Source: an uncultured Chloroflexia bacterium
GTDB taxonomy: Bacteria > Chloroflexota > Chloroflexia > QHBQ01 > JADMIH01
DNA: 64,000 bases
Direction of reading: 5' to 3'
NCBI GenBank assembly: GCA_963797095.1
Contig: CAWCNY010000005.1
Coordinates: 96,001 to 160,000, forward strand
Notes under the pieces: generated by a model
What the model was told of the DNA's origin: nothing
Database searches by the model: none
What the model saw: the letters and a program-made list of their open reading frames with translations, nothing else
Translations under genes and position numbers: made by a program
In this document: positions 52,049 through 52,575 of the stretch, piece after piece
Position numbering within the stretch: the first letter of the stretch is position 1
Layout: each line of letters begins with the position of its first letter

Positions 52049-52266
52049 CATGGCAACTCAGTATGCTCAGCCCCAGCAGCCTCGCAGGCGCTTCACCGTC
52101 AATGAATATCATAAGGTGAGGGAGACCGGCATTTTTGGGCGCGGATGACCGCGTTGAACTGATTGATGGGGAGATCGTGGAGATGAGTCCCATAAACGTA
52201 CCTCGCTCGGCTTGTGTCGACATGCTGGGAATGCATTTGAGCCGCAGGGTCCCTGAGGGAATTATC

Positions 52267-52486
52267 GTGATGACTCCGCATGGCGTAAACGCCAGCAGCT
52301 TCTACGGTTTTGCACCGATGCATACTCATCCATATGCCATTAAGGTTGCACTATAGGAGACACCTAAGATGCTTTTACGCTGCACAAGGGTTTCGTGCAA
52401 CAACCCGCTAACATCTTGCATTATCAAAGTGCGGACTACTACCCGAAGGCAATAGTGGCGTGTAGCATTGGTTAGCTTCCACGTTA
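52267..52486 (-). ncRNA. Candidate TnpB-type omega (right-end) RNA scaffold
   Basis: Downstream of TTGCTC-18-CATAAT; stems include ACTATTGCC-UUCG-GGTAGTAGT, GCTAAC/GTTAGC, GTTGCAC/GTGCAGC, GCATAT/GTATGC, CGGT/ACCG; ends at the right-end TCAC. Confidence 0.6.
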
Positions 52487-52575
52487 CTTCAATTATGCGA
52501 CAAAGGAGAGACTATGAGCAACCTTTTATCAGCCGAACCACAGCCCATAAATGGGCATGGCTTTCAAGGTTTTCT
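52267..52575 (-). mobile_element. Non-autonomous IS200/IS605-family mini-element (no tnpA/tnpB ORF)
   Basis: - strand: target TTAC|left end AGAAAACCTTG-AAAG-hairpin CCATGCCCA-TTTA-TGGGCTGTGG ... right end GAAG-hairpin CTGCTGGCG-TTTA-CGCCATGCGG-AGTCA-TCAC|; no target duplication; removing it restores PEGIIVRVQNP. Confidence 0.88.

Follow-up and report, generated by a model that had tools for sequence, protein, structure and literature searches.

A gene-less IS200/IS605-type element with a predicted stand-alone omegaRNA scaffold in a Chloroflexia genome

A 64,000-nt stretch of contig CAWCNY010000005.1 (positions 96,001–160,000, assembly GCA_963797095.1; hereafter the window) from an uncultured Chloroflexia bacterium contains a 309-nt repeat, in which a promoter-like site is followed by a densely paired sequence rather than by a gene. 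The question raised by this locus is whether such a repeat is a source of guide RNA for a nuclease encoded elsewhere, or whether it is what remains of a transposon that has lost its genes. The original prediction took it to be a mobile, RNA-only module that programs a TnpB protein supplied in trans. We consider it probable that the element is a stand-alone omegaRNA passenger: it would be moved by the transposase TnpA acting in trans, be transcribed from its own promoter, and serve an ISDra2-like TnpB, also acting in trans, that would cut TTAC+GATAATTCC after excision, whereupon recombination would restore the element.

The element, its copies and its insertion site

The element runs from position 52575 to position 52267 of the window on the – strand, has ends of the IS200/IS605 insertion sequence (IS) type, and contains no protein genes. 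Read in this direction, the sequence passes from the left flank (...GCACTCTTAC) into the element (AGAAAACCTTGAAAGCC...(309 nt)...GCGGAGTCATCAC) and out into the right flank (GATAATTCCCTCAGGG...); the right end reads ...GAGTCATCAC to position 52267 and is followed by the flank GATAATTCCCTCAGGGACCC. The span first proposed, 52247–52521, reaches from the promoter through the RNA to 20 nt of flank and leaves out the left end of the full element. Directly 5' of the left end is the target tetranucleotide TTAC (52576–52579, – strand), which from the sequence and the flanks of the copies is the predicted transposon-associated motif (TAM) of the emptied site. The subterminal palindrome GCCCAT-TT-ATGGGC (52543–52556, – strand) is presumed to be the recognition hairpin of TnpA, given its sequence and the compensatory changes that it shows in a full IS. 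The insertion shows no target duplication and the element no terminal inverted repeats; neither end is an inverted copy of the other.

A 301-nt query taken from the element gave 16 matches in the 6.0-Mb genome to which the window belongs (G000). Besides the window copy, blastn returned nine copies at least 99.3% identical to it, one copy at 87% identity and several short partial matches. Seven of the nine near-identical copies are full length, one is without part of the left end, and one is without both the left end and the promoter. In an alignment of 11 copies, all 11 end in ...TCAC and their flanks diverge after it, while the left flank of the nine copies with an intact left end is TTAC in seven cases, GTAC in one and CAAC in one. 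Altogether, the genome contains 18 protein-less relatives: 10 near-identical copies (at least 99% alike, the window copy included), the copy at 87% identity, six diverged ones that occur singly or in pairs, and a mini version of 112 nt. A tblastn search with the eight TnpB-like frames of this genome found no match inside the element. Because the element has the insertion signature of the IS200/IS605 family and no gene of its own, we assign it on its sequence to the non-autonomous members of that family (52267–52575, – strand), known as palindrome-associated transposable elements (PATEs) or miniature inverted-repeat transposable elements (MITEs); the assignment draws on copies whose flanks diverge exactly at both ends and on the interrupted gene described next.

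The window copy is inserted within a gene of the Uma2 family on the + strand. The N-terminal piece (52120–52266, +), which has 49 codons after an in-frame stop, shows 51–61% identity by tblastn to the intact homologues L068–L071, and the C-terminal piece (52576–52941, +; 122 aa) matches Pfam Uma2 (PF05685, E 3.4e-19) over profile positions 59–171 of 172. In three of the intact homologues, all from related genomes (L068, L069 and L071), the two pieces abut to the base with neither loss nor duplication; the fourth, L070, is too diverged for the junction to be judged. As a separate observation, the in-frame stop of the left piece lies just upstream of a conserved ...DDRVELIDGEIVEMSP... block, and the gene, being split by the element besides, looks from its sequence like a decaying pseudogene.

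The same genome encodes candidate partners for both movement and cleavage, as the prediction of a trans-encoded partner had allowed: eight places match the TnpB zinc-ribbon domain and four match the Y1 transposase. A complete IS on contig C3 (approximately 1052789–1054453) carries a tnpA gene of 129 aa (Y1_Tnp, E 4e-38) and a tnpB gene of 357 aa (C3:1052855-1053928; Pfam OrfB_IS605, TNB and HTH). Its left end is preceded by TTAC, is 85% identical to the left end of the element over 78 nt, and forms the same hairpin with compensatory changes (GCCGCTTTAGCGGC); its right end is related to that of the element and finishes ...GAGTAGTCAC, with a GTCAC terminus. Mobilization of the element by TnpA in trans is inferred from these shared ends together with the recent copies. 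The 357-aa TnpB aligns over its full length to ISDra2 TnpB (PDB 8h1j, 8bf8/8exa; E 1e-45) and, in an alignment to its top match, a designed TnpB-like nuclease, retains all three sites with acidic motifs (GIDVG, AIEKL and HRDV). A second copy of the full IS, on C1, has its left end cut off, and a different intact TnpB of 388 aa is encoded on C2 (1032877–1034043). Five further genomes with protein-less copies were checked, and all five also contain tnpB. On sequence grounds an ordinary TnpB of the ISDra2-like type is the probable partner, and the suggestion of an undescribed partner is not supported, given the 1e-45 match of the linked 357-aa protein to PDB 8h1j/8exa.

Several variant copies were also observed. 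The copy at C5:636573-636793 of G000 (L010/L025) is 100% identical to the window copy and lacks the left end and promoter; TTAC stands directly before it, and its similarity starts within 2–3 nt of the predicted transcription start of the window copy. Aberrant left-end cleavage or a deletion may account for it. The mini derivative at C6:415012-415123 (L013/L034), a single-copy sequence of 112 nt with TTAC before its left end, joins the first ~30 nt of a left end, in which the hairpin is reduced to one half, to the final ~70 nt of the scaffold. The copies at C2:787242-787451 and C4:557672-557879 (L032 and L033) represent another protein-less subfamily with ~24-nt tandem repeats (CTACCAAGTAGCGCGTAGGGCTCC-like) upstream of the –10 box. 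The left end of the element also contains, on the strand opposite the RNA, a 21-codon open reading frame (52515–52578, +) with a strong GGAGAG ribosome-binding-like site. This frame is open in the full IS too, where the residues over the hairpin vary with the compensatory base changes, and the frame seems to stem from the DNA hairpin, not to encode a peptide.

RNA structure and the scaffold shared with tnpB loci

The predicted omegaRNA scaffold of ~219 nt (52267–52485, – strand) is delimited by a covariance model, R1, and by covariation, with its start placed from the –10 box. Its 5' accessory part contains a UUCG-capped hairpin, ACTATTGCC-TTCG-GGTAGTAGT (52435–52456), which had been pointed out as a C(UUCG)G hairpin at 52456–52435 and is indeed there; it is kept with a changed sequence and a GCAA loop in the copy at C3:433438. 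A middle domain follows (52348–52432), in which the long-range helix GCACU/AGUGC encloses the helices AAGAUGU/AGCAUCUU and UGUUGCAC/GUGCAGCG and for which the evidence is covariation. Nearer the 3' end stands the hairpin GCAUAU-GGAUGA-GUAUGC (52320–52337), whose loop sequence GAUGA (52330–52326) forms the 5' half of a pseudoknot. The right-end hairpin (52276–52298), capped by a UUUA loop (52289–52286), is at once the right-end palindrome of the transposon and, by analogy, the counterpart of the guide-adjacent stem of omegaRNAs; its helix (helix 11) has double changes in seven of nine pairs. The 3' half of the pseudoknot, UCAUC (52269–52273), occupies nt –7 to –3 before the guide. The flank GATAATTCCCTCAGGGACCC (52247–52266), which is unique in the genome, is the predicted guide segment, the guide of ISDra2 being 16 nt long. 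All of these features are on the – strand. At the level of sequence, the claim of a mobile, protein-less element with a TnpB-type scaffold is thus supported, in that the scaffold occupies the right ~220 nt and ends exactly at the transposon boundary, where the flank takes over as the predicted guide.

The secondary structure was assessed by comparison of diverged copies. Among five diverged versions from G000, 22 of 61 consensus pairs carry a compensatory change. A larger set of ten diverged protein-less versions, from G000 and two congeners, was aligned with MAFFT, i.e., blind to structure, and folded with RNAalifold; it yielded 56 pairs, of which 33–34 are changed on both sides. In this set 92.2% of cells are paired, compared with 23–46% when the 3' partners are slid by one to three columns, and none of 500 column shuffles matched the observed values for pairing, double changes or covariation. 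Double changes in the middle domain affect seven of eight pairs in helix 7 and four of seven in helix 6, and G-U pairs are common in the – strand reading of the alignment. The expectation of a densely paired RNA was therefore borne out beyond chance in the comparative data, and only modestly in the fold of the single sequence. The predicted stems AAGATG/CATCTT, GTTGCAC/GTGCAGC, GCATAT/GTATGC and CGGT/ACCG and the right-end hairpin all recur in the RNAalifold consensus with compensatory changes. Conversely, the stem GCTAAC/GTTAGC can be found in the sequence but appears in neither the minimum-free-energy nor the consensus folds; GTTAGC is present, by eye, in three of the ten rows and shows no covariation, and this one stem was rejected. 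A long-range helix proposed by RNAalifold (helix 2, columns 42–45 with 232–235) has no double changes and competes with the UUCG hairpin, and was given no weight.

A related element in another species (L039; 84% identical) agrees with the window copy in its left end, its promoter and the architecture of its scaffold. The differences between the two touch 13 pairs, six on both sides and seven on one side, and break none. As no pair is broken, the structure was kept up after the loss of tnpB.

The pseudoknot was analyzed separately, since it had not been built into R1. In the window copy, UCAUC (52273–52269) is complementary to the loop GAUGA (52330–52326). Across 35 distinct scaffolds, both protein-less and tnpB-linked, a 5-mer that pairs fully with the scaffold's own tail was found at –80 to –52 in 33, nearly always at –66 to –60. 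Foreign tails paired in 210 of 1018 combinations (21%), and the neighbouring 5-mer (–12 to –8) in 6 of 35. Ten tail types each have their own matching loop, such as GGCGG/CCGUC, GGCAA/UUGUC, GAUUA/UAAUC, GACUA/UAGUC and GAAGU/ACUUC. At the level of sequence, the predicted pseudoknot ties the protein-less RNAs to the tnpB-linked ones.

The relationship to tnpB loci was then read from R1, which was built from five protein-less copies only. Its 22 matches in G000 are the 18 protein-less copies and four weaker matches (30–34 bits, E 6e-5 to 4e-4, E-values rough), and these four stop at the IS boundary and coincide exactly with the 3' ends of four of the eight tnpB-like places. In G000 and 100 relatives, R1 matched in 19 of 101 genomes, a count that includes the genome G016 (the source of loci L041 and L059 among the 41 described here, and excluded from alignments A2 and A3 and from the promoter listing). 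When 41 loci were searched by tblastn with the eight TnpB-like frames of G000, 12 had a tnpB frame overlapping the R1 match, eight of them in relatives. All 12 score at most 46 bits and match through the 3' core, ending at the IS boundary. The other 29 loci, which include every match above 46 bits, have no overlapping tnpB frame; two of them have a non-overlapping fragment of another tnpB type nearby, and four lie within 400 nt of a contig end, where a tnpB could be hidden.

What both kinds of locus have in common is the last ~85 nt: a hairpin, a small CGG...CCG hairpin, the invariant UAGAAGC, the right-end hairpin and the terminal ...UCAC. Of the four tnpB-linked alignments shown, three have 77–87 positions in the middle domain that R1 skips, and in the fourth, at the C2 tnpB locus, this domain is aligned only loosely and with mismatched pairs. 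Thus the middle domain is kept in protein-less copies and unaligned in tnpB-linked ones; a consensus fold of ten tnpB-linked 3' regions likewise recovered the shared 3' hairpins and no counterpart of the middle domain. The proposal that partner and scaffold family might both be undescribed finds no support in this ~85-nt ending, which is that of the scaffold at four of the eight tnpB-like places and at eight tnpB loci in relatives. The covariance-model comparison that had been suggested as a check gave covariation among the copies and a tnpB preceding the 3' ~85 nt, and, in the 101 genomes, no tnpB preceding the full scaffold.

The search was extended with a pattern of three scaffold motifs to the genomes of 185,579 species, where it hit 53 stretches against a rough chance estimate of ~65. 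Fourteen of the 53 were passed to R1; five matched, all of them protein-less and all in records of metagenome-assembled genomes from Chloroflexia/Chloroflexota. No tnpB-linked full scaffold emerged, which, with so narrow a pattern, is no evidence of absence. Many of the pattern matches recur with a fixed span, of 80 nt in Flavobacteriia and of 91 nt in assorted phyla, which suggests that the three motifs also match some conserved gene unrelated to the element; five 91-nt matches (L084, L085, L112, L113 and L118) and L119 were among the 14 and had no R1 match.

No conserved neighbouring gene was seen beside the protein-less copies of the 41 loci. Three groups of loci showed further features. 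At L042 (G056:C5:2358800-2362069), from another family, a protein-less copy lies between an N-terminal fragment (residues 1–127) of a different tnpB type and a zinc-ribbon match just past the right end that is weak (23.9 bits, below the cut-off); this copy appears to have inserted into the tnpB gene of another IS. The protein-less scaffolds of family f6 (L043, L045, L048, L054 and L061) do without the two 5' hairpins, have the –10 box ~10 nt before GUAGUUUGCAC, and contain an extra insertion of ~70 nt between the middle domain and the pseudoknot hairpin, so that the RNA varies in its peripheral domains and retains its core and middle domain. The DNA past the right end of the protein-less copy at L057 (1733–3119; G015:C14) is 79–81% identical over 1.4 kb to two stretches of G000 (C8 25594–26989 and 79497–80894), and is judged from this repetition to be another repeated element.

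Promoter, guides and rival explanations

A copy that has no tnpB needs a promoter of its own, and a site just 5' of the scaffold is therefore where it would be expected. The promoter-like site (52492–52521, – strand) is laid out as predicted, with TTGCTC (–35) at 52521–52516, an 18-nt spacer, CATAAT (–10) at 52497–52492 and no gene downstream. A –10-like hexamer stands directly 5' of the scaffold in ~18 of 19 protein-less copies, 13 of which have TG two bases upstream (judged by eye). Examples are TGGTATAAT, TGCTATAAT and TGGTACAAT; the box is seen across left-end types and across families of the class, and three otherwise identical copies have TATAAT in place of CATAAT. The case for a promoter is thus made by the position and conservation of the –10 box in diverged copies, a sequence-level argument, and the site did not rise above chance in isolation, with a –35 match of 3/6 and no entry in the consensus scan.

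The expectation that each new insertion creates a new guide agrees with what the copies show: the 18 protein-less copies have 18 different flanks, hence 18 guides. Each 16-mer guide occurs once in G000, and its own flank is the only match without mismatches. A search of this genome for second sites of the 18 guides returned one site with one mismatch and no TAM, and no site next to TTAC, GTAC or CAAC at up to two mismatches. With no other TAM-adjacent sites, the emptied site of each copy is the only predictable target of its RNA, and the picture of a dispersed guide array is left without targets. Judged from sequence, the guide set fits a role in homing or retention, not a regulatory or defensive set.

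Taken as a stand-alone omegaRNA passenger, the element would work as follows. It keeps the left-end hairpin, a small outward-facing promoter, the ~220-nt omegaRNA scaffold and the right-end hairpin. A Y1 transposase TnpA from a full IS elsewhere would excise it and insert it 3' of TTAC, and transcription from its own promoter would pass through the scaffold and across the right end, so that the RNA takes in ~16–20 nt of flank. An ISDra2-like TnpB from another IS would bind the 3' core of this RNA, as the homology of that core suggests; the bound part would comprise the pseudoknot-loop hairpin, the small CGG/CCG hairpin, UAGAAGC and the UUUA-capped stem. After excision by TnpA, TnpB would cut the rejoined TTAC+GATAATTCCCTCAGGG..., and repair templated by a sister copy in which the element is still present would cause it to be kept and spread, by analogy with the model of Meers et al. 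(2023). Every new insertion would automatically supply a new guide. The conserved 5' two-thirds of the RNA would be an accessory part, which may help to stabilize or fold an RNA no longer processed out of a tnpB mRNA.

Several results weigh against this reading. The 5' ~135 nt of the scaffold have no alignable counterpart in any tnpB-linked copy of the 101 genomes, so that compatibility with TnpB rests on the 3' core alone; nor is the full scaffold preceded by a tnpB in any of these genomes or in any of the five true matches of the pattern scan. The two intact ISDra2-like TnpBs (357 and 388 aa) are both possible partners. TTGCTC agrees with TTGACA at only 3 of 6 positions, which makes a weak –35, and a consensus promoter scan of 51900–52900 did not list the TTGCTC/CATAAT site, listing instead a chance-level site across the right end. 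Folded as a single sequence, the scaffold has z = –2.24, and 3 of 200 shuffles fold equally well. Rfam 15, searched over 50000–55000 with E up to 1, gave no match on the element, but only the 16S rRNA and two chance-level matches elsewhere. When the right flank was searched against 26 genomes of the genus, no orthologous empty site turned up in DNA, the best match for it being 67–70% identical; the matches returned were paralogue-like, at 67–80% identity, so that the clean insertion is established only at the protein level. As to transcription, metatranscriptomes offer a weak hint in favour of the reading: four runs from four studies, of soil and freshwater sediment, each contain one contig of 175–221 nt matching relatives of the scaffold, and one of these extends from the equivalent of window position 52467 to 19 nt past the right end, with compensatory differences in the right-end hairpin. 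These contigs come from relatives, not from this organism (90–99% alike over 51–171 nt), their shares are small (0.05), DNA carry-over is possible, and they give neither ends nor strand.

The alternative closest to the passenger reading is that the element is a relic, i.e., a deletion derivative mobilized by TnpA, with the residual 3' end of a lost tnpB as its interior, an RNA that is no longer made or used, and a structure that reflects past function. In its favour, the 3' core is colinear with the region coding for the C-terminal tail of TnpB, the promoter is weak by consensus, and the 112-nt copy at C6:415012-415123 shows that a derivative without the interior exists. That copy is single, however, whereas the full form is present at 10 near-identical copies. 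Compensatory changes have also accumulated between copies that were already tnpB-less (the six double, seven single-sided and zero broken pairs of L039), the 5' domain covaries (helices 6 and 7) yet never aligns to tnpB-linked copies, and conservation of the –10 box extends over families of the class; we therefore regard a relic as unlikely. The hairpins might instead be single-stranded DNA signals for the TnpA transposase and not RNA, a role that the left-end and right-end hairpins certainly fit. Between these ends, however, lie seven further helices and a loop-to-tail pseudoknot, with a promoter box conserved upstream and frequent G-U pairs in the – strand reading; the core recurs at tnpB 3' ends, the known place of omegaRNA, and the mini copy does without the interior. 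With these observations in hand, DNA signals are a very improbable account of the whole structure.

The conserved 5' and middle domains could also be read by a different partner, with only the transposon end common with TnpB omegaRNAs. It is true that the 5' ~135 nt are conserved by covariation and found only in protein-less copies, and that a tnpB in front of the full scaffold was seen in none of the 101 genomes. But in ISDra2 the contacts with TnpB are made within the 3' 116 nt, and the RNA can do without its 5' part (PMC10097598). The pseudoknot and guide-adjacent stem are common to tnpB-linked copies, and no conserved neighbouring gene was seen, which leaves a different partner with a slim chance. 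Equally hard to credit, and if anything more so, is that the copies are host-domesticated guides, a dispersed array that directs TnpB, or a TnpB-like repressor with a dead nuclease, to targets in the host or in foreign DNA. The 18 different flanks suit such an array, and TnpB-derived repressors do exist according to 10.1101/2023.11.30.569447. Yet none of the 18 guides has a TAM-adjacent second site at up to two mismatches, the linked TnpB retains its catalytic motifs, no flank synteny with relatives was found, and the recent bursts of identical copies and the gene-breaking insertion look selfish.

Beyond the passenger reading, we put forward a bolder proposal, which is possible but doubtful: that protein-less scaffolds are an old, self-promoted, guide-only lineage that parasitises the TnpB and TnpA of other IS, and are not mere deletion products, with a selected 5' domain that has a function of its own. 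The guide-only form outnumbers tnpB-linked copies 18 to 4 in G000 and occurs in several families of the class, and the 5' accessory domain of ~135 nt (two hairpins, at 52483–52435 in the window copy, and a long-range multi-helix domain) has no tnpB-linked counterpart. If the proposal is right, the 5' domain could stabilize or load an RNA that is not carved from tnpB mRNA, or allow it to out-compete the cis omegaRNA for TnpB.

The surroundings of the window copy have two further features. A complete bacterial 16S rRNA gene (53290–54849, +; Rfam SSU_rRNA_bacteria, 1470.8 bits) begins ~350 nt past the end of the interrupted Uma2 gene, and the 143 nt at 53258–53400, from just upstream of the 16S gene into it on the + strand, match C1:72449-72587 at 94% identity, where a second rRNA operon presumably lies. 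Comparison by blastn of 18 loci of relatives with G000 showed no shared flank synteny.

Relation to known systems

The phenomenon itself is already described, and the window element is a clean, multi-copy example of it. The original prediction had allowed for an undescribed partner and scaffold family, but both stand-alone omegaRNAs and PATE omegaRNAs used in trans are in print, in passages of 10.1101/2023.03.14.532601 and PMC10691335. Our limited literature search found no paper devoted to promoter-bearing PATEs of the TnpB type, which does not prove that there is none, and supplements (Extended Data Fig. 2e of Meers et al.; the supplementary information of PMC10691335) may hold cases. In the relevant passages of the Meers preprint, PMC10691335 and PMC10097598, we found no description of the conserved –10 box, the 18-to-4 excess or the covarying ~135-nt 5' part.

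What gives this locus its value is the unusual clarity of the comparative evidence that a guide RNA, once parted from its nuclease, can be maintained and multiplied by riding on a transposon, with promoter, pseudoknot and guide-adjacent stem kept under selection after the loss of tnpB. This supports a modular, trans-acting view of the OMEGA (obligate mobile element-guided activity) systems, and of a step from transposon guides toward CRISPR-like guide collections. It also offers a compact natural promoter-plus-scaffold cassette, with covarying variants, for testing which parts of an omegaRNA TnpB needs. Among stand-alone omegaRNAs, those of the IscB/IsrB type have their guide at the 5' end, from the left-end flank, and the cases tested by Altae-Tran et al. 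in 2021 were reportedly mainly of this type, with the guide at the 5' end. That identity was considered for the window element and rejected: the promoter is 5' of the scaffold, the scaffold exits over the right end, and the core matches tnpB 3' ends.

The nearest likeness is to the PATEs of Geobacillus stearothermophilus, which in the Meers preprint (10.1101/2023.03.14.532601) are protein-less, share both ends with tnpA/tnpB IS of the same genome, and 'often encode omegaRNAs' for use in trans. Passages of the same source describe recognition by IS200/IS605 transposases of subterminal DNA hairpins on one strand, and a homing or retention role for TnpB in Geobacillus under a peel-and-paste and cut-and-copy model. 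The present element differs from these PATEs, as described there, in its Chloroflexia/Chloroflexota lineage, its TTAC target, the –10 box conserved at the junction and the ~135-nt covarying 5' accessory domain. It resembles the stand-alone omegaRNAs of OMEGA systems in being free of effector and transposase in a genome that has effector loci, and differs in having its guide at the 3' end and a core that matches tnpB 3' ends; a passage of PMC10691335 on Altae-Tran et al. (2021) states that such mobilized omegaRNAs exist and act in trans, and that their biological role is unknown. With the guide RNAs of TldR proteins, as outlined in 10.1101/2023.11.30.569447, it has in common a TnpB-type scaffold uncoupled from transposition of its protein. 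Those guides belong to fixed host loci beside a nuclease-dead protein and have promoter targets, whereas this element is mobile and multi-copy, has no adjacent tnpB-like frame or other protein, and has no in-genome targets, and a TldR-type domesticated guide was rejected on this basis.

The closest structural comparison is with the ISDra2 omegaRNA (Nakagawa et al., 2023; PMC10097598). In both, the scaffold ends at the right end and is followed by the guide, and in both a pseudoknot just 5' of the guide pairs with the loop of an upstream hairpin, through nt –5 to –3 in ISDra2. The passages on its structure describe a functional scaffold of 116 nt with a dispensable 5' region and a guide-adjacent stem capped by a UUUA tetraloop at –20 to –17; here the UUUA cap is at –23 to –20. 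The core is shorter here, with the pseudoknot partner at ~–64 compared to –105 to –103 in ISDra2, and the stem 2/3 region of ISDra2 is cut down to a hairpin of 3–4 bp. The predicted TAM is TTAC, compared to TTGAT in ISDra2. In tnpB-bearing IS such as ISDra2 the omegaRNA comes from the tnpB transcript (PMC10097598), whereas here it would come from a predicted promoter of its own, and the 5' part that is dispensable in ISDra2 is conserved here by covariation.

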